A DNA stretch of 64,000 nucleotides from Minisyncoccota bacterium (lineage in GTDB: Bacteria; Patescibacteriota; Minisyncoccia; Phycocordibacterales; Phycocordibacteraceae). This document shows positions 8,098 to 56,831 of the stretch, one piece after another; the stretch's first letter is position 1, and each line of letters opens with the position of its first letter. The DNA lies in assembly GCA_035627595.1 (NCBI GenBank), contig DASPLK010000002.1, forward strand, positions 224,481-288,480. Direction: 5' to 3'. The notes under the pieces were generated by a model. The model had not been told where the DNA came from. It did no database searches and saw only the letters and a program-made list of their open reading frames with translations. Position numbers and translations under genes: made by a program.

Positions 8098-10914
8098 CTA
8101 GGGACTAGGAGTAAAGGGGACGGCGCGGACTAAATCATTCGGATGAGGAATCGAAAGGCCCTGCGCTAGGAAGTAGTCCCCGTTGAGTAGACCGCTGTAT
8201 GGGGTCACTCTTCCTTCAGCATCTGCCACGATCGCTCCTATATTTGGCTGCTGAATGCCAAATACAGACTCTACCGTTGCGTCATACAGAACGCGCACGC
8301 CTGGATGCTCGAGCGCATACGCTTGAGCAAATTCATAACGCTCATTAGTGGTACCGCCATACGCTACGACATCGCCGCGCGAATCAATAAAGATAGCCGG
8401 TTGTCGAGGATCGATATCGACGCCATTAATATTCGTATACGGCTGCGTATAGTCGATAGGACCTTCTGCTGCTGGTGGTTGCGGTAGTGGCTGCTCTTGC
8501 TGGACGGGTCTTGGTGCTTCTGGCTGAGTTTCTGCTGCACTTGGCTCTGCTTGTGGTGCGAGAGGTTCAGGCGAAACTGGTTCCTGCGGAATATCGATCG
8601 GACCTGCTTCGAGTGCTGGGTCTGGAAGGACCTCTGGCTGTACTGGTACTTCCGGTGACGGCTCTGCGGCCGTGACCGAAGGAGCCTCAGTCGGCTGCTG
8701 CTGGATCTCAATAGGCGCGGCTTCTGGAAGTGGTGCAGGAGGAACTTCTGGCTGCACTGGTACTTCCGGTGACGGCTCTGCGGCCGTGACCGAAGGAACC
8801 TCAGTTGGCTGCTGCTGGATCTCAATAGGCGCGGCTTCCGCACTAGTTACTGCAGATGGCACTTCACTTGGAGCGCTCGCCTCCATCGGGAAGCTGTGAC
8901 TTGATGCCAGTGTTCCATCGCTTTCTACAAGCACTGAGCTTAACCCGGAGTTCGGCCGTTCTAGCACGATCTGATTCTCTGCGTTAAGCGTTATGGTGTC
9001 CCCTGGCTGCATAATTACACTTCGTCCATCCTCAAGCTGCAGACCGAGTCGTAGTGTCGCGTTATCCTCTCCTGCAAGCAGTGATGCGCCATCCTCTGTC
9101 CTAAGTAGCTCCAGGAAATTCTTAACAGCGATAGGCTGCTCTTGTCCGGCAAATGCTTCCTCGAGCTGCAAACCAAAATGGCCGACCAGTCGATCTGCGT
9201 TATTTATGTTGCCGGATACTGCGAGGGAGCGAGCTTCTGAAGGAATAGATTCCGCGGATGCTTCGGCCGCACCAGACGTCGCTTCTCCTGCGCCAAGAGA
9301 TGTAGTAGGTGTTTCTGGTTGCTGCGGAACGGTAGCTGTACCTTCCGGAGTTCTATCTGTGCCTGCAACACCGTCAGATGTCCTTGGCTCACCTGCTGGA
9401 CCTGATTCTGCCGCTCGTATTGCGTCGCCCGTCTGCTGCATTTCCGTAAGTGCAACCGCCGTACTGACACCCACACCGAGACCTACAAGCACCTTAAGGA
9501 TTGCCGTCTTTCGCTCGAGCGTCTCATCCATTCCGCGCTCGCGGAGCTGCAGACGCTTGCGCTCGATAGCCTGCAGGACCTCAAGCGTCAATTCCTTATT
9601 CTTGGACATGCGCCGTATCTCCTCTTGTAGCGACTTCTCATCCACGACAGCATCTTTCTGTGCCCTTTCACCGCGCAGCTTCTTATAGAGGAATCCCGCC
9701 GTCTCTGCCGCGGCAAGACCTGCCACAGTAGAGCCAAGCGATCGAAATACGCTAAGTGTGCCGAATCCAGCTGCAGCGACTATACCTGCGGTACCAAACG
9801 AACCGATGAAGGCCGCTCCGCCGGACATCAGAATAGCGCTACTTATCACGCGCGCTGCCTTGCCATACTTCTGACCAAACCTTTCGATAAAGAAATTATC
9901 AAGGCGCTCATTCGCTCTATTCATCCACTGGATGCCCTTCTCTAGGGCGTCCGGCGCCTTCTCTCCAAGTGCCTCGGCGCGCATTGAAATATCGCGATCG
10001 GTGCTTGGCGCAATGATGTCCTTATACAGATGCAGTCCTTCGTACTTGCTGAGCGCGCGCTCTATCCATTCAGGGCTCTTGCCCAGCGCTTCCCAGCGCT
10101 CTCGTGCTGCGCTCTCAAGCGCTGCCTTTGCCTCAAGACGCTTCTGGTCGCGCTCCATGCGTGTGTCGTTTATCTCCATTGAAGCTGCTCCAAGAGGACG
10201 TAGCCTCTTTATGACACGTCCAACAATATTATTGTTCGTATAGAATCGCTTGTACGCGTCTGCATACTTCTGATCTGCCTCAAGCAGTGCTGCATACTGT
10301 TCCTTTGCAGCAACACGCGACTCCAGCGCAAGTGACTCCTTGAACTCCTGGTAGTTTTGCGGACCCTCCTTCGTTGGGTCGACAATATGATTCTCAATTG
10401 CAAATTTCCCTACCGTGGATGCCAGTTCGCTCTTCCATAAACGCTTCATTTCTGCAGGCTTTAGCATCTGTTCTGCGAGCGCCTTCTTCAACGTGTCTGT
10501 ATCTGCCTTCTCTACAACGGCACTTGCGTATGCAAACCGGCCGTCATCTATGGATGCGGTCCCTGCTGTGTTCACGTGCGCTGACTCAACCGGCACGCCA
10601 TCGCCAAGCCCTCCCGTGCGTGCTGCGGCTTCAGGGGCCGGCTCCATTGGAGGCTCCTCTCCGTCAAGCACGAGAGGACGGTAGTTGGACTCATCTTTGC
10701 GACTATTCTTAAGTGCCTCGCCCAGACGGCCTACAACTGCCTTTACATCCTTCTTTAGGTCAGGGCCTACACCAGACATCGCCTCGATAGGAGATCTTCC
10801 ATCAGCGCCCCATGTGGCGGGATCGGCTTCGCTCCTTTGCGTAGGAGTCGCCTGCTTTTTGTCGTCGTCCTGTGGCGGTACGGTGACGGGATCCGGAGGT
10901 ATCTTCTCGGACAT
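8098..10914 (-). CDS. Large (938 aa) membrane-anchored protein with coiled-coil region, Pro/Glu-rich tandem repeats and a C-terminal globular domain; T4SS-associated by position
   Basis: Hydrophobic hairpin AILMSGGAAFIGSFGTAGIVAAAGFGTLSVF...AGLAAAETAGFLY. Long coiled-coil. Two 38-aa repeats EAAPIEIQQQPTEVPSVTAAEPSPEVPVQPEVPPAPLP. Immediately downstream of the VirB4-like ATPase gene. Confidence 0.6.
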   Translation of the reverse strand: MSEKIPPDPVTVPPQDDDKKQATPTQRSEADPATWGADGRSPIEAMSGVGPDLKKDVKAVVGRLGEALKNSRKDESNYRPLVLDGEEPPMEPAPEAAARTGGLGDGVPVESAHVNTAGTASIDDGRFAYASAVVEKADTDTLKKALAEQMLKPAEMKRLWKSELASTVGKFAIENHIVDPTKEGPQNYQEFKESLALESRVAAKEQYAALLEADQKYADAYKRFYTNNNIVGRVIKRLRPLGAASMEINDTRMERDQKRLEAKAALESAARERWEALGKSPEWIERALSKYEGLHLYKDIIAPSTDRDISMRAEALGEKAPDALEKGIQWMNRANERLDNFFIERFGQKYGKAARVISSAILMSGGAAFIGSFGTAGIVAAAGFGTLSVFRSLGSTVAGLAAAETAGFLYKKLRGERAQKDAVVDEKSLQEEIRRMSKNKELTLEVLQAIERKRLQLRERGMDETLERKTAILKVLVGLGVGVSTAVALTEMQQTGDAIRAAESGPAGEPRTSDGVAGTDRTPEGTATVPQQPETPTTSLGAGEATSGAAEASAESIPSEARSLAVSGNINNADRLVGHFGLQLEEAFAGQEQPIAVKNFLELLRTEDGASLLAGEDNATLRLGLQLEDGRSVIMQPGDTITLNAENQIVLERPNSGLSSVLVESDGTLASSHSFPMEASAPSEVPSAVTSAEAAPIEIQQQPTEVPSVTAAEPSPEVPVQPEVPPAPLPEAAPIEIQQQPTEAPSVTAAEPSPEVPVQPEVLPDPALEAGPIDIPQEPVSPEPLAPQAEPSAAETQPEAPRPVQQEQPLPQPPAAEGPIDYTQPYTNINGVDIDPRQPAIFIDSRGDVVAYGGTTNERYEFAQAYALEHPGVRVLYDATVESVFGIQQPNIGAIVADAEGRVTPYSGLLNGDYFLAQGLSIPHPNDLVRAVPFTPSP
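8600..8850. repeat. In-frame tandem repeat, 114-bp period, 2 copies about 90% identical (inside the 938-aa gene)
   Basis: ctggtacttccggtgacggctctgcggccgtgaccgaagga[g/a]cctcagt[c/t]ggctgctgctggatctcaataggcgcggcttc occurs at about 8641 and about 8755. The antisense track ORFs here are repeat artefacts. Confidence 0.7.
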
Positions 10915-11002: not shown

Positions 11003-13759
11003 CTAGGAGAGGTACCGCTGCCGAATGGTTCCTTCGACCGTCGCGCGATCCCTGCCGTATGTCAGGTACGACAATTCGCGTAGATCATCTACCTGCTCCA
11101 TATTTCCCTTGTCGAGCTGAATGGTCTTTATGTTAAACGGCTTTTGTGGCACGCCGTTCGCAAGTATGCGTACATACGCATTCCGATTCTCAATATTCAC
11201 AAAATCAAGAGGCTGGAAGGTCGGCGCAAACTGCTTAGCAAAGTACTCCCCATCTTCCTCCCCTACGCGGAATACTGCCATGTTGCCGACGTTGCCGAAC
11301 ACCGCGTCACGAATTTTCTCGTCGACCTGTGCCAGGAACTGGTGTGCAAGGGTAAGTGAGAGCTTGTACTTGCGGGCTTCGGACAAGATGCCCGGAATTG
11401 AGTCCGTGGTGATGTTCTGGAACTCATCGATATAGAGATAGAACGGCGGGAACTGCGTGCCCGGGGAGTCCGCTCTTGATAGCGCAGCCATGAACAACTT
11501 TCCAACCAAGATAAGACCAAGCAGGTTAGCGTTACGCTCACCCAAGCGTCCCTTAGATAGGTTTACGAGAAGGATCTTCTTATTATCGATGACCTCGCGG
11601 AAGTTGAACGAAGAGACCTGCTGTCCGATAATCGGGCGCATAAAGTCATTTGCCGTAAACTCATCGAATTTGTTCGTGATGTACGGCACGATGTTCTGAA
11701 GCGATGCTTCACCCTCGGCCTTGGTAGCGATCTCCATCCAGAATTGGTTCACGACCGGATTGGAGCTTCGTGCAAGCTTGTAATTCCTATACTCGGCGTT
11801 ACTCAGCACACGGCTAATGTCCATAAGCGTAGAGCCCGAGGCGGGGTCCTCCATGACGAGCGTGGTTGCATTTCTGAAGTACTGGATGAAGGCAGGGCCC
11901 ATTGATTCAGGAACATCGCCATACAGCGTCTGAAAGATTGCAAGCATCTCATTGACGATGAATGTCTTTTGCTCGGGCCGCTGCGGATCGTATTCGAGCA
12001 TATTGAGGCCGAATGGCCTGTCGAGGTAGGCCGGATCGAAGTAAATGACGTCTTCATAGCGCTCTGGCGGCACGCTTGCCAGAACTTCAATGATGTCATT
12101 GCCGTGCGGATCGATGAAGCACACGCCATTGCCCGCCTTGATGTCCTGTTCGATGAGAGTTCGAAGGAATCCGGTCTTTCCTGTTCCCGTTTGACCAATA
12201 ACGTAGAGGTGGCGGAGGCGATCCTCCCCGTCGATTTTCACTTCGCTTGTTTGTCCGCGGAAGGTATTGGTGCCGATCAGAATGCCCTGCTTAGGCAGAT
12301 CGACAGGCGCCGCTGCCTGCGTAAAGCGGGCTTGCTTTAGATGCGGAGACGACTGGATGCCCTTAGGTGGGAAGTGGAATATTGTCGTGAGCTCGCGTAG
12401 CGATAGCGGCATCGTGTGGTTGCGGGAAAAAAGACGGAACGAAAAATCGCGGAAGAAGCCGCGCGCCCTTGCCGCTTCATACCGCTTCCAGACCATCTGA
12501 TTGCCGTGCGCACTCTCAAACTGATTGAATGAGGATTCAAGCTCGTGAAGTATTGCATGCGCACGACTAGGATCAGGAGATGATGTTGCAAGACGTATTG
12601 TGGTTGCAACGATCGGGGTTGCTGTCTTCTTCTCAACAAGCAGTATCTCGTCTTTGTTCTCCTCGTTGCGCTTTCGTCGCTCGCGTTCCTCATCTTTCCT
12701 CTGCGCAGAACTACCAAAAAAGGTACTGGCAACCTGTCGAGCAGCTTCACCCGCAAATCCTTCTGGCATGGAAAGCGCGCGCGAGCGATGCTCGCCGCTT
12801 CGAAGCGCATCAAGTACTTTCCGATAGTGCTTCACGTACCGGTCCCTCTGTGGCTGGATGATTATCTGGAGTGCAGCGCCTTCGCCTTCTTCCTGTATTT
12901 TTGCAAATGCGTTTAGTATCGAATTGATCGGATCGTAGTCGAAATCGGTATAGTCCTTTAGAGAAAGCATCGGGTAGTGATGCAGCTCTGCAGCTGAACC
13001 GATTGTCGTACCGCCATCAGCGAAAATGTTGTAATCGTTTGGCTGGCGGGTCAGGTGGGCGTCCGGGAATATGGCAAGAAGCTGCTTTTCGAACAAATCG
13101 CGACGGCCATTGGGGACTGCGGCGAAGAATAGGAGGTGCGGCCTATCAGCAGGCACTGCAAGCTCGAGTGAGAAATACGGTGGCTCTCCAGCGTATGCGT
13201 CCTCTACGGCAAGCATACCTGCGTAAAACTGCTCCATTGAGGAGATCAGTTCCCTTAGCGGCTTTTTAGACCCTCCCTTATCCTCATCACTGAAATCGGG
13301 AAGCGCGATCTCATAGAGCGTCATGTGAAGCGCCTTCCAAGCTGGCTGGTCCTCGCCAAATCCAGGAACCTCCATACGCTGCAATACGTACTGAACAAGG
13401 AATCTATGGAAGTCGTCCTCTAGGTGTGGGCTATTGAGCTTTTCAAGTACCAGGAGCGCGTTCTTGATTCCCTTTTCCTCCATGATGTTCCGGAGCTCTA
13501 GCATGGTCTCGTCGTCGTCGTCCGGATCAAGTTCAAGCGCTAGCGCGTGTGCTTCTTGGGGCTTGAGTGCATAGCCGGGCGCGAGCACCTCGTGCGGCTG
13601 CTCTTTGTGATGAATGATGCGCTCATGCACCACATGCGCACGAGGCACCTCCTGCGTATGAGACGCGAGCTCCCGCTCCTTCGCCTCTACTTGCGCGCGC
13701 AGATGCTCGAGCTCTTCTTCCGGTGTACGGAATTGTTCAACGTATCCTTCAGCCGTCAT
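11003..13759 (-). CDS. Type IV secretion system ATPase, VirB4/TraC/TrbE-family-like (AAA_10/DUF87-type P-loop)
   Basis: Walker A YVIGQTGTGKTGFL, Walker B FYLYIDEF, then ARKYKLSLTLAHQFLAQ (the RK...Q motif typical of conjugative ATPases). Long N-terminal domain of about 480 aa before the P-loop. Start taken at MTAEGYV (AGGT 3 nt upstream) rather than the track start. Confidence 0.7.
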   Translation of the reverse strand: MTAEGYVEQFRTPEEELEHLRAQVEAKERELASHTQEVPRAHVVHERIIHHKEQPHEVLAPGYALKPQEAHALALELDPDDDDETMLELRNIMEEKGIKNALLVLEKLNSPHLEDDFHRFLVQYVLQRMEVPGFGEDQPAWKALHMTLYEIALPDFSDEDKGGSKKPLRELISSMEQFYAGMLAVEDAYAGEPPYFSLELAVPADRPHLLFFAAVPNGRRDLFEKQLLAIFPDAHLTRQPNDYNIFADGGTTIGSAAELHHYPMLSLKDYTDFDYDPINSILNAFAKIQEEGEGAALQIIIQPQRDRYVKHYRKVLDALRSGEHRSRALSMPEGFAGEAARQVASTFFGSSAQRKDEERERRKRNEENKDEILLVEKKTATPIVATTIRLATSSPDPSRAHAILHELESSFNQFESAHGNQMVWKRYEAARARGFFRDFSFRLFSRNHTMPLSLRELTTIFHFPPKGIQSSPHLKQARFTQAAAPVDLPKQGILIGTNTFRGQTSEVKIDGEDRLRHLYVIGQTGTGKTGFLRTLIEQDIKAGNGVCFIDPHGNDIIEVLASVPPERYEDVIYFDPAYLDRPFGLNMLEYDPQRPEQKTFIVNEMLAIFQTLYGDVPESMGPAFIQYFRNATTLVMEDPASGSTLMDISRVLSNAEYRNYKLARSSNPVVNQFWMEIATKAEGEASLQNIVPYITNKFDEFTANDFMRPIIGQQVSSFNFREVIDNKKILLVNLSKGRLGERNANLLGLILVGKLFMAALSRADSPGTQFPPFYLYIDEFQNITTDSIPGILSEARKYKLSLTLAHQFLAQVDEKIRDAVFGNVGNMAVFRVGEEDGEYFAKQFAPTFQPLDFVNIENRNAYVRILANGVPQKPFNIKTIQLDKGNMEQVDDLRELSYLTYGRDRATVEGTIRQRYLS

Positions 13760-13868
13760 TACCTGCAGTATACGATACGTGAAAGATGTAATGCGAAGTA
13801 TCCAGGCATATAGACAGTGTTTGCATCGCATGTAAGGATGCCGCTACGACACCAAATGGAGGAAGTCA

Positions 13869-51372: not shown

Positions 51373-51394
51373 ACTAGTGCTAGAATACGCGCAT

Positions 51395-52300
51395 ATGGCA
51401 CGTGCGTACGCTCTTGGCATCCTTTCATTTTTACTCCTGCTTCCGGGCACCACTTTCGCTGCGCCCGTGGATGATGTCGCCGCTGCGACCGTGAATGTGT
51501 ATTGCACGTACAAATCGGGCAGCAGAACCTATAGCACGACCGGAAGTGGATTCTTCATCGACTCCCGCGGCATCATCATGACAAATGCGCATGTTGCGGT
51601 GCCATTTCTCCTTACTGATAAGAAGGGCAAGACATTGAGCGACTGTGATATCCGCACCGGCTCCCCTGCTAAGGACCGCTATGAAGCGCGTGTACTCTAC
51701 ATCTCCCCTGAATGGCTTGAAGAGAATGTTGAGGAACTTAAGAAGGGCCGTCCTAGAGGCACGGGCGAGGGAGACTTCGCGCTTCTTCAGGTAACTGCTG
51801 CGGTAAAGGGCAGTCTGCCAACTTCATTCGCTTCAATACCGGTTGCACTTTCAGGAAACGTGCTCGAGGGTGATACGCTCATTGCCGCCGGCTACCCTGC
51901 CGAAAAGCTTAGCTTTAAGGAAGTACAGAAGAAGCTGAAGCTTGAGACCACCGCGCCAACGCTTACGAGCGTCCGCTACTACGTTCGCCCGTATGCGGAC
52001 CTCATCGTGCTCTCCCCAAGCAAGCTAAGCGCGAGCGGTGCCTCTGGAGGACCTATTGCAACTGCAGATGGGCGTGCGATCGCTATAACAACCGCAGTAG
52101 AGGAGAAGAAGAATCAGGATGAGCGCAGCTTACGCGCTATCACCCTCTCTTATGTAGACCGCGTACTATTGCTTGATGTGGGGAAGCCGCTTTCCCTCAT
52201 GCTACTTTCAGACCTTGAGCCGCTAGTAGCGCGCACCAGCGCCTCACTCTCAGAAGATCTCCTGACGAGCCTGCGAAAGGCGCTTTTGAAGCGAAGATAG
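51395..52300 (+). CDS. Trypsin-like (S1 family) serine protease, secreted
   Basis: Signal peptide. His in TNAHV. Ser in ASGASGGPI. 4-nt gap to miaA. Confidence 0.7.
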   Translation: MARAYALGILSFLLLLPGTTFAAPVDDVAAATVNVYCTYKSGSRTYSTTGSGFFIDSRGIIMTNAHVAVPFLLTDKKGKTLSDCDIRTGSPAKDRYEARVLYISPEWLEENVEELKKGRPRGTGEGDFALLQVTAAVKGSLPTSFASIPVALSGNVLEGDTLIAAGYPAEKLSFKEVQKKLKLETTAPTLTSVRYYVRPYADLIVLSPSKLSASGASGGPIATADGRAIAITTAVEEKKNQDERSLRAITLSYVDRVLLLDVGKPLSLMLLSDLEPLVARTSASLSEDLLTSLRKALLKRR

Positions 52301-53125
52301 ATGGAACCGATCCGTATCGTATGTATCGCTGGTCCCACCGCGTCAGGAAAGTCTGCGCGTGCAGTTGAACGTGCACTGCAGGATGCAGGCGAGATTATCT
52401 CAGTTGATAGCCGCCAGGTGTACCGTACGCTTGATATCGGCACGGAGAAGGTTACGCGTGATGAGATGCGGGGCGTGCCGCATCACCTGATAGATGTACG
52501 CGATCCGAGCGACACGTATAGCGCAGGTGACTTCGTTGAGGACGCGACAAAGTACATAGAGGATATACACGCACGCGGAAAGCTCCCCATCCTCGCGGGC
52601 GGCACGCACTTCTATTTCGACGCACTCTTACACGGACTTCCGCCTCAAACGCCGCCTGATCCGGCATTTCGTGAGGGACTTGAAGCCTACTCGAGTTCGG
52701 AGCTCTATGAGCGCATCCATGAGCTTGACCCTGCACGCGCAGCAATGCTTGATCCGATGAATCGCAGGCGCCTTATACGCGCGCTTGAGATCCTAAACGT
52801 ATATAAAAGCGTGCCGGAACGCATACCGAATGCCCGGTATGAAGTGGAGTGGATCCGCATTGAGCCCGAGCGCGTCGAACTGCGCGCACGTATTGATACA
52901 CGTCTGAAGAATGCCTTTGCGCGAGGCCTGATCGATGAAGTAGAGCGCGTACGCAAAGATGTAGGAGACGAGCGCTTAGAGGAACTCGGACTTGAATATC
53001 GCATCGTGGGCGAGTATCTCAGAGGTGAGCGCGAGGAAAGTACGCTTATGCCTGCCCTATCCGCCAAGCTCTGGCAGTACGCAAAACGCCAGATGATGTG
53101 GCTACGAAAGCTCGCTAGCGCTTAG
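52301..53125 (+). CDS. miaA: tRNA dimethylallyltransferase
   Basis: P-loop IAGPTASGKSARAVE. DSRQVYRTLDIGTEK substrate motif. Confidence 0.9.
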   Translation: MEPIRIVCIAGPTASGKSARAVERALQDAGEIISVDSRQVYRTLDIGTEKVTRDEMRGVPHHLIDVRDPSDTYSAGDFVEDATKYIEDIHARGKLPILAGGTHFYFDALLHGLPPQTPPDPAFREGLEAYSSSELYERIHELDPARAAMLDPMNRRRLIRALEILNVYKSVPERIPNARYEVEWIRIEPERVELRARIDTRLKNAFARGLIDEVERVRKDVGDERLEELGLEYRIVGEYLRGEREESTLMPALSAKLWQYAKRQMMWLRKLASA

Positions 53126-54113
53126 GGGGATTACACACGCCATTATTGGTCGTGATATCCCAGTGATCGGATTCGCGCACATATTCGTTGCCGCAGCGAT
53201 CGCGATAACGGGGATCGCTGCCACGACTTCCATCGCGCGTCATTCCCTGGATGTACGCATTGATGCCATCGTTAAGTCCTATATCAATCTTATAGCCATT
53301 GAAGTGACTTAATGGCCCTCCTTCATGACCTATCTCTGTCCCGCCCGTTACGGTCATGGAGCAGTTACACGCTTGCTTGATTGCAATAATTTGGTTGATC
53401 GAGTCCTCGCGTATGGTATCGAGCGACGTGCAAGTTCGATTGTTCTGGTTCGAACAGTTGCCAGAAGAAGAAATTGAGATTCCCGCTGCGCTAAGCCGTG
53501 CCGCTGCGTCCGCATGCGATAGTTCACCTGCGCCTATGACGCCCGGCTCCCCTACGAATCCGTCAGAGTTGCCGCCTGTCGACGGCTGCGCAACAACACC
53601 CGGAAGTGCGTCCGGCGGGTCTGCGATACGGAAGCACATGTTTTCATTGTCTCCAGCTAGGATTTGATGCCATGGACCAAAATTCGCATCGCCCTGCGGA
53701 TCGTAGAGTGTCTTCATTATGAAATCGACGATGAGCCATGCTGAGAGCACGACCAGTATCCCGATGACCACGTTCATAAGCCGCGTCTTTGCCGCTTCAC
53801 GCTGACCGGGACTGCCGGCAGAGGATACGAACATGAAGCCCGTGTACACGATGTAAATAATCGCGAGGATAAATGAGAGCGAAATCGCGAGGTTGATCAG
53901 GTTCTGCATGGTCTGCATCACGCATCCCCAATCCGGCGCACTCGGTATCGAAGCACCACTAGGCGCAAGCTGATCCTCGCATGTACAGTCCGGCTGGCCG
54001 TTTGTGCCGTCTGGAATAATCGGTCCGAAAAAGTTTGCTGCCGCAAAAGTCTGCGGCGTAAACGCAACAAAGAATGCAAGCGAGAGTGCGAGGGCTGTAA
54101 AAATGCGCTTCAT
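53115..54113 (-). CDS. VirB2/TrbC-like T4SS pilin N-terminal domain fused to a Cys-rich C-terminal domain (function unknown; putative cell-wall hydrolase)
   Basis: Signal peptide, Cys pair (CTCED...WGC), two hydrophobic helices (QNLINLAISLSFILAIIYIVYTGFMF...VIGILVVLSAWLIVDFIMK). C-terminal 180 aa with GNCSNQNNRTCTSL...CNCS...GHEGGPLSHF. Paralog of 55222..56214 in the N-terminal 150 aa. Confidence 0.6.
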   Translation of the reverse strand: MKRIFTALALSLAFFVAFTPQTFAAANFFGPIIPDGTNGQPDCTCEDQLAPSGASIPSAPDWGCVMQTMQNLINLAISLSFILAIIYIVYTGFMFVSSAGSPGQREAAKTRLMNVVIGILVVLSAWLIVDFIMKTLYDPQGDANFGPWHQILAGDNENMCFRIADPPDALPGVVAQPSTGGNSDGFVGEPGVIGAGELSHADAAARLSAAGISISSSGNCSNQNNRTCTSLDTIREDSINQIIAIKQACNCSMTVTGGTEIGHEGGPLSHFNGYKIDIGLNDGINAYIQGMTRDGSRGSDPRYRDRCGNEYVRESDHWDITTNNGVCNPPKR

Positions 54114-54632
54114 TTAAGGTAGCGGCACTGCGCCGGGACAGAACGAGAGTCCTAGTTCCTTCCCAGCAAACCGTGGTTCAATTGTATCAGCCGTTTGGAC
54201 CGCTATCTTAAGCGAACAGAGGATATCGTCTGCTAGCGGGATGAGCTCTCTGAGCTTCGTCTCAGCGGCAGTTCGTGATGCGCCAAGCGGAGACGCAAGG
54301 AGCCCAATGCTGATCGTACTATCGCTCCCGTATACGATTCCATACCTATGATCTAGCTCAACAAGATCATCGTTCTGTGTGAGATATACGTAGGTGATAC
54401 CCGTGTCCTCCACTTCTACCGACGGATGGCCATACGTAAAATCAGGCACCGTGATTATGCGGTTGGCTTTACTTGTGAGGACGACTGTTGCACCTGAATC
54501 ACGCGGCAATGATGGTATTGTCGGCGTAGTGGTCGCCGTATCTGTCGCGGTTATAGAAACGCGCCACCACCCAAAGCCGGCAAGGCTAACGAAAAGCGCG
54601 ACTATGATGCCAAGTACTACGGGCGTGCGCAT
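54114..54632 (-). CDS. Small membrane-anchored protein, paralog A (VirB8-like topology or immunity-like), conserved C-terminus LGLSFCPGAVPLP
   Basis: N-terminal TM (VVLGIIVALFVSLAGFGWW). Shares architecture and C-terminal motif with 54635..55204. Stop abuts the downstream pilin ATG (TAAATG). Confidence 0.5.
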   Translation of the reverse strand: MRTPVVLGIIVALFVSLAGFGWWRVSITATDTATTTPTIPSLPRDSGATVVLTSKANRIITVPDFTYGHPSVEVEDTGITYVYLTQNDDLVELDHRYGIVYGSDSTISIGLLASPLGASRTAAETKLRELIPLADDILCSLKIAVQTADTIEPRFAGKELGLSFCPGAVPLP

Positions 54633-54634
54633 AC

Positions 54635-55204
54635 CTACGGCAGCACAACGGCGCCCGGACAAAACGATAGGCCAAGATTTGTACCGGCAAATGAATCGTT
54701 CACGTAGCTATCGGTGCCCACGTATATATTAAGCGCGCAAAGTCCTGTCTGGTCGGTACCGAGCGTATTTAGTAGAAACTGCTCCGCACGATGGCGCGCG
54801 TCTGATAGAGGCTCTTCTAAGAGCGCTACGGTGAAGCTTCCGTAAGCTGTATTGAAGATGATGTTCGCGCCGGGGAGCTCGGCTGCTGCAGGACAGTCAT
54901 CTGTCATAAGGCAGTACTCAGGGGAGCCGGCCAGGTAGTACACGCCGGGATTCTGTACATCCTCAATGGTTGTCTCGCTCTTGAGGAAATCACGGATGAC
55001 TACCGAACCGCCGTCCGCAGTTGGAACTTCGACCAGAGGAACGTCCGTAGGCCGTATGTCGCTCGGATCCGCGTTAGGAAATGAAACGGGCGGATCCACC
55101 TCAGCCTGCTCCGGCGTTGTACGAAGTATGAAAAATGCAGCGACACCCACCGCGACAAGCAGCGCTCCAACCGAAAATATTCCTATCATCCAGAGATTTC
55201 GCAT
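54635..55204 (-). CDS. Small membrane-anchored protein, paralog B, conserved C-terminus LGLSFCPGAVVLP
   Basis: N-terminal TM (MIGIFSVGALLVAVGVAAFFIL). Stop is 2 nt before the start of paralog A. Confidence 0.5.
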   Translation of the reverse strand: MRNLWMIGIFSVGALLVAVGVAAFFILRTTPEQAEVDPPVSFPNADPSDIRPTDVPLVEVPTADGGSVVIRDFLKSETTIEDVQNPGVYYLAGSPEYCLMTDDCPAAAELPGANIIFNTAYGSFTVALLEEPLSDARHRAEQFLLNTLGTDQTGLCALNIYVGTDSYVNDSFAGTNLGLSFCPGAVVLP

Positions 55205-55221
55205 ACGAAAATGATAGCACC

Positions 55222-56214
55222 TTAGCCTCCGCCGCGGTTGATACACTGCCGCTGCTTCGCGCTATTTGGATCTGTTACCCAAGCACCAAAGCCCTGAGTA
55301 CGCAGGATGTATGCTGCGGCAGAAGCGCTACAGTTGAGGTTTGCGGCAGCACGCACACACCGATCTACGATTGCGCTTCCAGCAATTGGGTTGCCATTCC
55401 TAAAACCGTCATCGCAGTTCAAAGGCCCCGATACACCTGCTGCTTGATAACAAGCGGCATTCTCGTATGCACGGCTATTTCCATCTAGAAGCACCTGGAA
55501 CGGTCCGGCGGCACTTGAGCCGCGTCCCCAGCGATAGTTTAGGTTCCGCGCTCCACAAGTACTCTCGAAGCGTGCAATGCAGGCGAGCGTGTTGGCGTCG
55601 GCATTCGATATCGAGTAGCCGCCTGCTGCTGCTCCCGCTTTTACGAGGACCGGGTCGCATGCTCCGGTACCGGTACCGAGCGGGCCGTCATATCCGCCGC
55701 CAGTAAAGACATCAATGACGGAAGGCAGCGGCGTAGGCGGTCCTGACGCCTGGAAGCATCGCGGTGCGCCGCCTGGTGCGAGTATTTCGCTCCATGGACC
55801 AAAGCCGACCTCAGGTCCTGCGTCATAGAGCACTTTCATTACAAAATCGACCACGAGCCACGCGGACAGCACGACAAGCGTGCCAATAACTGCGTTCCCG
55901 ATCAACTTCCTTCCTGCTTCTCTGCTGTGCGCGTTTGTGCTCGAAAGCATGAACATGACGCCGGCGTATACGATCGTGAGGACAATAATGATGATGGAAA
56001 TAGCAACCGCAAAATTCATTAGATTCTGCACTGTTTGCATTACGCATCCCCAATCAGCTGCCGTCGTGATGCGATCGCCGGTCTTAAGCATCTCCTCGTC
56101 TTCGCAGTTACATTCAGGCGGGACGATGGGCCCGAAGAAGGTTGCCGCCTGAGCAGAGAGCGGTACGAAGGTAATAAGCGCAACAAAAATGAGCGGAAGG
56201 AGTGCCACACGCAT
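55222..56214 (-). CDS. VirB2/TrbC-like T4SS pilin N-terminal domain fused to a lytic transglycosylase (SLT/GH23-like, VirB1-like) domain
   Basis: N-terminal pilin-like domain as above. C-terminus LACIARFESTCGARNLNYRWG...AAGPFQVL...AYENAACY matches the SLT pattern (catalytic E-S ... G-x-x-Q ... A-Y). Confidence 0.65.
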   Translation of the reverse strand: MRVALLPLIFVALITFVPLSAQAATFFGPIVPPECNCEDEEMLKTGDRITTAADWGCVMQTVQNLMNFAVAISIIIIVLTIVYAGVMFMLSSTNAHSREAGRKLIGNAVIGTLVVLSAWLVVDFVMKVLYDAGPEVGFGPWSEILAPGGAPRCFQASGPPTPLPSVIDVFTGGGYDGPLGTGTGACDPVLVKAGAAAGGYSISNADANTLACIARFESTCGARNLNYRWGRGSSAAGPFQVLLDGNSRAYENAACYQAAGVSGPLNCDDGFRNGNPIAGSAIVDRCVRAAANLNCSASAAAYILRTQGFGAWVTDPNSAKQRQCINRGGG

Positions 56215-56366: not shown

Positions 56367-56831
56367 TTATGTAAGTTCATCCGGTGAGATGATAGCTGTA
56401 AATCCGTCAGCTACGCTCGGAGGATACTCCTGTAGCAAGCGACGCATACGTTCGAGAGCATGTTCCGGAACGGTTCGCGCTCGAAGCACGTTGCGCTCCT
56501 TTGCAGTATCAAGCGGCACATTGAAATACACGCCAACGATCTCGGTTGCGCCATAGCTCTTCGCCTTATCCGCAAAATCTCTGCGGTCCACTGGCTTGTA
56601 CTGAGTTGCATCAAAGACGACGGTCTCTCCCCTTTCGAGCGCTTCTTTCAAACGAAGGAATGCGGTCTCCCACACGAGCCGCATATCCGATTGGATACGC
56701 ACATCTCCCGATATCTCTTGTCGAAGCTCATCAGGAGATATGTAGGCATAGCTGTGCTCTCGCGCGTATTGAAGAAGGGAGGTCGACTTCCCTGATCCTG
56801 GGATGCCAATGCCTGCTATTACCCTACTCAT
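56367..56831 (-). CDS. P-loop kinase/ATPase (AAA_33 / zeta-toxin-like / polynucleotide-kinase-like fold)
   Basis: Walker A VIAGIGIPGSGKST. Walker B-like VVFDAT. 154 aa. Confidence 0.55.
   Translation of the reverse strand: MSRVIAGIGIPGSGKSTSLLQYAREHSYAYISPDELRQEISGDVRIQSDMRLVWETAFLRLKEALERGETVVFDATQYKPVDRRDFADKAKSYGATEIVGVYFNVPLDTAKERNVLRARTVPEHALERMRRLLQEYPPSVADGFTAIISPDELT

Follow-up and report, generated by a model that had tools for sequence, protein, structure and literature searches.

What does a bacterium do with pilin-like proteins that end in enzymes? The question is raised by a four-gene cassette at positions 53115..56214 of a 64,000-nucleotide stretch of DNA (hereafter, the window) from a Minisyncoccota bacterium belonging to the candidate phyla radiation (CPR; GenBank assembly GCA_035627595.1, contig DASPLK010000002.1, positions 224,481 to 288,480 of the forward strand), in which two related pilin modules carry different C-terminal domains and two small membrane proteins are encoded between them. 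A first-pass annotation made from the sequence letters had offered two explanations, a polymorphic toxin/immunity organization or a split set of VirB1/PrgK-like wall hydrolases with VirB8-like partners. On balance, our data lean towards the cassette being a split, pilin-targeted Paceibacteria counterpart of the VirB1/PrgK wall hydrolases, with a type IV secretion system (T4SS) connection that we infer from the pilin modules and from comparison with another CPR bacterium.

A four-gene cassette of pilin fusions

The interval 53115..56214 is filled, on the minus strand, by four co-oriented open reading frames (ORFs), g1 to g4, as the first-pass annotation had described. The first, g1 (56214..55222, 330 aa), encodes a signal peptide, a VirB2-like pilin module, a Gly-rich linker and a lysozyme-like domain, and the last, g4 (54113..53115, 332 aa), encodes a signal peptide, a VirB2-like pilin module, a low-confidence linker and a predicted LAS-type peptidase domain. 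Between them, g2 (55204..54635, 189 aa) and g3 (54632..54114, 172 aa) encode bitopic small proteins, paralogs A and B. The g1/g2, g2/g3 and g3/g4 spacers measure 17, 2 and 0 nt, a close spacing that fits a single operon. The mechanically called g2 ORF opens at a GTG at 55246; since 26 of 26 members of the small-protein family begin with ‘MR...’, we set its start at the ATG at 55204 (189 aa), and a gene caller applied to an identical contig picked an alternative start at Met 55189. On a 360-kb contig of a Candidatus Paceibacterota metagenome-assembled genome (MAG), NCBI labels g1 as ‘pilin’ (HYE23285.1, 100% identical) and the identical g4 and g3 proteins as ‘pilin’ (HYE23282.1) and ‘hypothetical protein’ (HYE23283.1), respectively.

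The shared pilin module

Over 182 aa of their N-terminal domains, g1 and g4 share 47% identity (E = 5e-53), and the C-terminal halves of the two proteins have no similarity. Both N-domains match PF18895 (T4SS_pilin) above its gathering score of 26.6 (g1, 33.8 bits; g4, 45.4 bits), which bears out the earlier description of them as paralogous and VirB2-like. Other pilin models were approached without being reached: PF04956 (TrbC/VirB2) matches fell below the gathering score of 27.9 bits (g4, 21.1 bits, E = 3.6e-4; g1, 11.2 bits), g4 came just under the threshold of an NCBIfam mycoplasma pilin-like model for integrative and conjugative elements, and a Foldseek match to the Aeropyrum conjugative pilin 8dfu was not significant (E = 2.8).

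In g1, a signal peptide (56146..56214, minus strand, aa 1-23, ending ...SAQA before AT) is predicted from the hydrophobic N-terminus and an AXA cleavage site, and is followed by the pilin module (55720..56145, minus strand, aa 24-165; PF18895 match aa 61-125, 55840..56034) with two hydrophobic helices at ~aa 60-95 and 103-132 and cysteines at positions 35, 37, 57 and 153. The g4 module (53598..54038, minus strand, aa 26-172; PF18895 match aa 67-132, 53718..53915) is organized alike. An AlphaFold2 (AF2) model of g4, with which hydropathy agrees, places helices at 2-18 (signal), 62-97 and 102-137, with cysteines at 43, 45, 64 and 160; the 35-residue helical hairpin is modelled with a pLDDT of ~90 and is preceded by a predicted extracytoplasmic, Cys-bearing segment, and the linker (173-187) is disordered (pLDDT <50). 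The short charged loop between the pilin helices, SSAGSPGQREAAK, carries Arg and Lys, so that the architecture expected of PF18895 is present.

Cys43, ahead of helix 1, and Cys160, past helix 2, are nearly invariant among g4 relatives. This arrangement would put both ends of the hairpin on the same oxidizing side of the membrane and the C-terminal domain outside the cell, suggesting that the enzyme domains are extracytoplasmic. Four short stand-alone pilins at another CPR locus (L011, described below) carry the identical pattern of one Cys before helix 1 and one after helix 2, and the fusions thus look, as far as their sequences tell, like ordinary CPR pilins plus a C-terminal extension. In size and context they depart from PF18895 proteins, which usually have ~100-180 aa and occur with VirB3, VirB4 and VirB6: g1 and g4 have 330 and 332 aa and both bear enzyme domains. 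Some g4-related pilin fusions are longer still (P0076 and P0102, 481-535 aa); in these, a fibronectin type III domain separates the pilin module from the C-terminal enzyme-like domain.

A lysozyme-like domain in g1

The ‘ES...GPFQV’ motif of g1, on which the first-pass annotation had based its proposal of a lytic-transglycosylase-like domain, lies inside a lysozyme-like domain with eight Cys (55225..55659, minus strand, aa 186-330; Glu217 codon at 55564..55566). A profile of 28 relatives matched human and other C-type lysozymes in the PDB (E = 2e-5) with the catalytic Glu and the G-I-F-Q segment aligned, and hhalign paired the g1 C-domain family with the SLT_3-type domains of other pilin fusions at a probability of 95% (E = 2e-8). 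Among the 28 relatives, 6 matched PF18896 (SLT_3; best E = 8.8e-6) and 7 matched PF00062 weakly.

In our alignment of the family (A3), E40-S41, G60, F62 and Q63 are invariant or nearly so, and the eight Cys are invariant; E40-S41 corresponds to Glu217-Ser218 of g1, and E40 and the G-x-F-Q segment align with Glu35 and GIFQ of human lysozyme. Opposite Asp53, the second catalytic Asp of human lysozyme, the family has an invariant Ala (A58 of A3, Ala235 of g1). Retention of Glu217 together with Ala at the position of the second Asp suggests that a single carboxylate is used, as in mechanisms of the lytic-transglycosylase or goose type, and we consider the g1 C-domain most likely to be a lytic transglycosylase.

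A LAS-type peptidase domain in g4

The first-pass annotation had called the g4 C-terminal domain (g4C; 53118..53528, minus strand, aa 196-332) Cys-rich and unrelated to that of g1, and our searches agree. Neither g4C nor its 36 relatives matched any Pfam family, including M15-type families such as PF02557 (VanY); g4C also lacked a PDB sequence match, with single-sequence or profile queries, and a match in PHROGs. Structure analysis shows the predicted domain to be a LAS-type zinc peptidase with the Hedgehog/DD-peptidase fold. Among 87 sequences of the family, His270-x6-Asp277 and His317 are invariant, a H-x6-D...H pattern that resembles the zinc-ligand pattern of LAS enzymes; His263 and Gly273 are likewise invariant in the alignment, and Lys275 and Trp318-Asp319 are nearly so. 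When g4C was aligned by hhalign with VanY-type and two other LAS-like heads, H-x6-D fell in register (SxHxxGxAxD of VanY), at probabilities of 0.6-8%, values too low to count as evidence by themselves. Because it has no M15 or PDB sequence match, has H-W-D (His317-Trp-Asp319) as its last motif, has the additional invariant His263 and is Cys-rich, g4C is best described as a separate and undescribed family outside Pfam.

The domain also occurs away from pilins. In Herpetosiphon llansteffanensis, which we take to be a predatory bacterium, it follows two PG_binding_1 repeats in WP_205701354.1 (L022, 5001..5906; proteins P0116 and P0408), beside transposase genes. Two viral proteins from IMG/VR carry g4C-type domains as well, one of 302 aa (L025, 3841..4749) and one of 928 aa (L026, 2769..5555); the latter is tape-measure-like and also contains a lysozyme-like ‘GYGMFQW’ segment with a GMFQ motif. 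These contexts, a peptidoglycan-binding protein and phage tail-type proteins, agree with a probable wall-degrading role for g4C. The assignments of the g1 and g4 C-domains to hydrolase-type enzymes are well supported, and both would be expected to be enzymatically active.

A family of small membrane proteins

The genes between the two fusions encode small bitopic paralogs with a common C-terminus, as had been reported: g2 and g3 share 34% identity across 122 aa (E = 1e-14) and both end in LGLSFCPGAV(V/P)LP. The g2 protein has an N-terminal transmembrane (TM) helix, a predicted extracytoplasmic domain and the C-terminal motif NLGLSFCPGAVVLP, and matches our local ‘small’ hidden Markov model (HMM) at 1e-48; g3 has a TM helix at aa ~5-26, the invariant residues Cys139 and Cys165 and, at its C-terminus, the motif ELGLSFCPGAVPLP. 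The family is large. A word-indexed search recovered 27 relatives, whereas an exhaustive profile search returned 2,227 cluster representatives at E <= 1e-3 (1,563 at E <= 1e-10), nearly all of 170-200 aa. Across 139 divergent members, Pro115, Arg120, Cys139, Gly161, Ser163 and Cys165 are invariant and nearly all sequences end in (N)LGLSFCPGAVxLP, so that the motif singled out in g2 and g3 by the first-pass annotation is near-invariant in other genomes.

The suggestion that these proteins are VirB8-like received no support from sequence searches. None of 26 members matched a VirB8/PrgL or NTF2 family in Pfam, and profiles built from 26 or from 139 sequences found no relatives in the PDB; the VirB8/NTF2 reading of g2 and g3 is thus without sequence support. 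The sole recurrent Pfam matches, DUF3352 and DUF2749, were discarded because they cover the N-terminal TM segment alone. A lipoprotein reading is also without sequence support, the proteins having a TM helix instead of a lipobox. The viral contig collection contained no relative of the family.

A few members depart from the usual form. P0294 (1084 aa) has the small-protein domain at its C-terminus and no Pfam domains elsewhere, and in P0275 and P0313 (~310 aa) the domain is tandemly duplicated in one polypeptide. An orphan homolog in a MAG labelled Eremiobacterota (L009, 5908..6390) has an N-terminus that resembles a signal peptide, where the family usually starts with a TM helix. This homolog adjoins an IS4/DDE-type transposase-like ORF, has no pilin gene nearby and may reflect horizontal transfer out of CPR.

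The cassette across CPR genomes

We gathered homologous loci by looking up exact proteins and by scanning one genome for each species, and scored them with locally built HMMs. At 16 distinct CPR loci we found, in this order, a pilin–lysozyme-like fusion of SLT_3-type or g1C-type, one or two of the small proteins and a pilin–peptidase fusion. The small gene directly follows the glycosidase fusion in every complete case, and the majority of loci encode a single small protein alongside two enzymes. Many proteins now annotated as ‘pilin’ are therefore pilin–hydrolase fusions in a fixed glycosidase / small partner / peptidase cassette, found in the window and in at least 15 other loci.

The peptidase head is the variable part. 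It is g4C in the window and L005, VanY (PF02557) in L006, L015, L016 and L019, LAS-like family ‘B’ in L001, L014, L017/18 and L020/21, LAS-like family ‘C’ in L010, another H..D..HxH type in L013 and CHAP-like in L012 and L024; here the VanY label comes from precomputed Pfam matches and the CHAP-like label from a sub-threshold match, and families B and C are LAS-like by motifs alone. The gene order varies too, with the peptidase gene first in L017/18. A reduced cassette (L023, 942..7543) consists of a pilin–SLT_3 fusion and a small protein without a peptidase gene. Next to it, at the place of ClpB/L33 in other genomes, are genes for a serine recombinase and a primase-polymerase-like protein, and the region may be an integrated element. 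At L011 (54..2183), a small-protein gene that the end of the contig truncates precedes four stand-alone PF18895-like pilins, all of them short (128-174 aa), which ties the small-protein family to ordinary arrays of pilins in addition to hydrolase fusions. The region just upstream of the cassette in another Paceibacteria genome (L019, 5329..8061) encodes a protein of 910 aa that has PG_binding_1 and fn3 domains.

Domain swapping and genomic setting

Replacement of the peptidase head could be followed in the DNA of close relatives. Homology between the window and L021 runs through g1, g2, g3 and the g4 pilin module, ends at ~53656 and resumes at 53115, the end of g4; the linker and C-domain of g4 have therefore been cleanly replaced by a family-B head in L021. 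Variation of the C-domain on a kept N-domain, proposed in the first-pass annotation as a signature to look for, is thus seen between paralogs, between loci and, with a clean breakpoint, between close relatives. Such head swaps between near-identical genomes suggest adaptation to a target that varies, perhaps the wall of the host cell.

ParB of the window is 93% identical to that of L001 and 94% to that of L020/L021, and ClpB and RelA, with values for L001, are 93% and 92% identical. Within the cassette, identities to L001 and to L020/L021, respectively, are 53% (N-module only, the C-domain being unalignable) and 89% (including the C-domain; partial ORF in L021) for g1, 34% and 63% for g2, 60% and 71% for g3, and 57% (N-module only, the C-domain being unalignable) and 81% (N-module only, the C-domain having been replaced) for g4. 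The cassette proteins of the window and L001 are thus 34-60% identical, with both C-domains unalignable. The genes flanking the cassette (51377..53125 and 56367..56831) are divergent from L001 as well, at 66% for an AAA_33 kinase, 64% for MiaA and 46% for the trypsin-like protease (L020/L021: 80% for MiaA and 79% for the protease), which suggests that the recombination tract may be wider than the cassette.

The cassette sits in a syntenic region. Its neighbours in the window are ClpB, the AAA_33 kinase, MiaA, the trypsin-like protease and ParB, and at least five genomes conserve a housekeeping neighbourhood with the order ClpB, L33, cassette, MiaA, ParB, RelA/SpoT, TopA. In several genomes the fuller order is IF-2, class-V aminotransferase, ClpB, L33, cassette, MiaA, trypsin-like protease, ParB, RelA/SpoT, TopA, DprA, with the trypsin-like protease gene missing from the neighbourhood in some genomes. 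A tRNA-Trp gene lies upstream of the cassette on the opposite strand, and miaA (plus strand, 52301..53125) converges on g4 (minus strand), the two 3' ends overlapping by 11 nt (53115..53125). A promoter scan of the locus found no sigma-70-like site, and terminator-like matches were within chance expectation.

Proposed function and its alternatives

We propose that the operon encodes a two-enzyme peptidoglycan-cutting set that would be displayed outside the cytoplasmic membrane of the Paceibacterota cell. Each enzyme would be tethered by a flexible Gly/Pro-rich linker to the C-terminus of a VirB2-like pilin module with two helices that is exported by Sec. That module would lodge the enzymes in the membrane and direct them to the destination of pilin, be it the site of T4SS/pilus assembly or the pilus itself. 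There, the enzymes may open the producer's own wall, the wall of an attached cell, or both, with the peptidase head serving as an exchangeable module. The small proteins, with a presumably disulfide-locked extracytoplasmic domain and an invariant C-terminal motif, are proposed to partner the glycosidase fusion, whose gene theirs always follow, as a regulator, inhibitor or chaperone. One could go further and regard the fusions as minor pilins that co-assemble into the CPR VirB2-like pilus and turn its filament, tip or base into an ‘enzymatic drill’ through the host wall, the choice of head tracking host peptidoglycan chemistry and the LGLSFCPGAV loop of the small protein silencing the glycosidase until assembly, though we regard this more elaborate scheme as speculative and rather improbable.

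To our knowledge, the T4SS of Southlakia epibionticum is the only CPR T4SS to have been studied genetically. Transposon sequencing in this organism showed that epibiotic life of CPR bacteria depends on a T4SS and VirB2-like pilins (PMC10633639). Two of its essential proteins encoded beside VirB4, SEML1_0006 and SEML1_0007, contain two lysozyme-like domains plus a Cys protease and a C-terminal Hedgehog/DD-peptidase domain, respectively (PMC10633639 supplement), and an essential array of PF18895 pilins (SEML1_0014-0019) lies near VirB4 (PMC10633639). The co-occurrence of lysozyme-like and Hedgehog/DD-peptidase proteins with VirB4 and pilins supports a T4SS link for the cassette. T4SS-pilin-domain proteins are also among the highly expressed unknowns in Paceibacterales co-cultures. 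In a survey of 3,035 Patescibacteria genomes, VirB1 was undetected in most genomes with VirB2-like pilins, and the authors concluded that the pilus may need no VirB1 or that other glycosidases substitute for it, leaving the replacing enzymes open (PMC12102498). We found no mention of C-terminal hydrolase fusions or of an intervening small-protein family in the text of that survey.

Several observations weigh against this proposal, chief among them the location of the cassette among housekeeping genes. No VirB3, VirB4 or VirB6 gene occurs within 10 kb of the window cassette and no recognisable T4SS core gene adjoins it, and the 64-kb window contains no PF18895-like ORFs other than g1 and g4. 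The sole T4SS-like gene in the window, ~40 kb from the cassette, encodes a 942-aa P-loop protein (11003..13831, minus strand) that matches DUF87/HerA and TraG-D_C in Pfam and scores far below threshold with NCBIfam models of TraD/VirD4-type coupling proteins. A 938-aa ORF without a family match (8098..10914, minus strand) adjoins it; neither protein has a PDB sequence match, and the two may be a divergent T4SS ATPase plus partner. The g1 sequence alone reaches no Pfam lysozyme or SLT model, and its matches to lysozymes are weak (E = 0.6). Part of the apparent fast evolution of the cassette may stem from one recombination tract and not from selection on the cassette, because MiaA and the trypsin-like gene are also unusually divergent from L001. 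Finally, we know of no experimental demonstration that PF18895 proteins form pili.

The same location lends weight to a serious alternative, namely that the cassette encodes housekeeping autolysins, ‘space-maker’ or cell-separation hydrolases for growth and division, in which the pilin hairpin is a recycled membrane anchor unconnected to any pilus or T4SS and the small proteins act as regulators. Small CPR genomes still need wall hydrolases, and the cassette is widespread, syntenic in its core-gene neighbourhood across several Paceibacteria genomes and outside any T4SS cluster, all of which favours this explanation. However, genomes with flanking proteins that share 92-94% identity have exchanged both C-domains, and the family of the peptidase is highly variable; enzymes fitted to the stable wall chemistry of their own cell do not usually vary in this way. 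Also against it are the occurrence of g4C in a predator's peptidoglycan-binding protein and in tail-type proteins of phages, two settings in which walls are attacked from outside, and the essential, T4SS-linked lysozyme-like and DD-peptidase-fold proteins of S. epibionticum, and we consider autolysins unlikely. Exchange of heads is, on the other hand, what would be expected if the pilin module delivered antibacterial wall-degrading C-domains against competitors or hosts and the small membrane proteins were the cognate immunity proteins. The part of the toxin/immunity proposal that stands is the kept N-module with swapped enzyme heads and a sharp recombination breakpoint: many heads occur on near-identical N-modules (e.g., P0008, with an N-domain 83% identical and a different C-domain), and small genes are adjacent. 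The immunity part fares worse. The small proteins form one conserved family whatever the peptidase type, and their near-invariant C-terminal motif is unlike fast-evolving immunity proteins; their genes are upstream, not downstream, of the variable peptidase gene, and g4 is followed directly by the convergent miaA, with no co-varying immunity gene. Most loci provide one small protein for two enzymes, and there are no orphan toxin-tip or immunity arrays. This explanation is therefore doubtful, and we give it little credence.

A phage-derived lysis cassette, with endolysins tethered to the membrane by a holin-like two-helix domain, is the least probable of the explanations and can be regarded as very remote. 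Two TM helices joined to muralytic domains loosely resemble holin/endolysin logic and g4C occurs in two IMG/VR viral contigs, but the N-module starts with a signal peptide predicted to be cleaved, and the family that it matches is one of pilins and not of holins. Phage genes do not flank the cassette, whose chromosomal synteny is kept across genomes, and the small-protein family is without relatives among viral contigs. Of the two explanations in the first-pass annotation, the split VirB1/PrgK-like hydrolase set fits better, since g4C, like the g1 domain, is a predicted peptidoglycan-type hydrolase (of the LAS fold); the cassette does not lie in a T4SS gene cluster. Read as such a set, the cassette is a concrete candidate for the wall-breaching function missing from CPR T4SS and renders the ‘missing VirB1’ question testable, which should interest CPR and T4SS specialists. 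The analysis also defines three families outside Pfam: the lysozyme-like domain, the LAS peptidase domain and the small membrane protein (~2,200 sequence clusters).

Comparison with known systems

The closest functional parallels to the proposed hydrolase set are PrgK (pCF10), TraG (pIP501), TcpG and CwlT, VirB1-type hydrolases that open the wall for Gram-positive conjugative T4SS (PMC12102498). Like the products of the window cassette, they combine a lysozyme/SLT-like glycosidase with a peptidase, are membrane-tethered and have their catalytic domains outside. In the window, however, each of the two activities has a protein of its own, a VirB2-like pilin module serves as the anchor in place of a plain TM helix, the peptidase is predicted to be LAS-type and not CHAP or NlpC/P60, a small membrane protein is intercalated and the genes lie outside a T4SS cluster.

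The T4SS locus of S. epibionticum ML1 (Wang et al. 2023, PMC10633639) shares three ingredients with the window: PF18895 pilins, a lysozyme-like domain and a domain with the Hedgehog/DD-peptidase fold, each of them scored there as essential for epibiotic growth. In ML1 the enzymes are large proteins distinct from the pilins and encoded next to VirB4, and the pilins stand alone and have only ~130 aa, whereas in the window the enzymes are fused to pilin modules and are away from any VirB4. A homolog of the small protein is not reported for ML1 (PMC10633639), as judged by annotation without a sequence search. Relative to the arrays of VirB2-like pilins in Patescibacteria (Quinonero-Coronel et al. 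2025, PMC12102498), where PF18895-type matches were treated as pilins, the window has two PF18895 genes with non-pilin genes between them.

Further parallels concern the enzymes themselves. The LAS metallopeptidases (VanX, VanY, LdcB, MepA, the S. albus DD-carboxypeptidase and the T5/Ply500 L-Ala-D-Glu endolysins, together with the Hedgehog N-domain) have no sequence match to g4C, whose final motif is H-W-D where theirs is H-x-H or E-x-x-H, and which adds the invariant His263 and is rich in Cys. Phage virion-associated lysins, represented here by the 928-aa IMG/VR protein, also pair a glycosidase with a peptidase on a filament-forming scaffold, although in that case the scaffold is a tail instead of a pilin, both activities reside in a single polypeptide and the source is a viral contig, not a characterised phage. 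Set beside these systems, the window presents known ingredients in an undescribed architecture.

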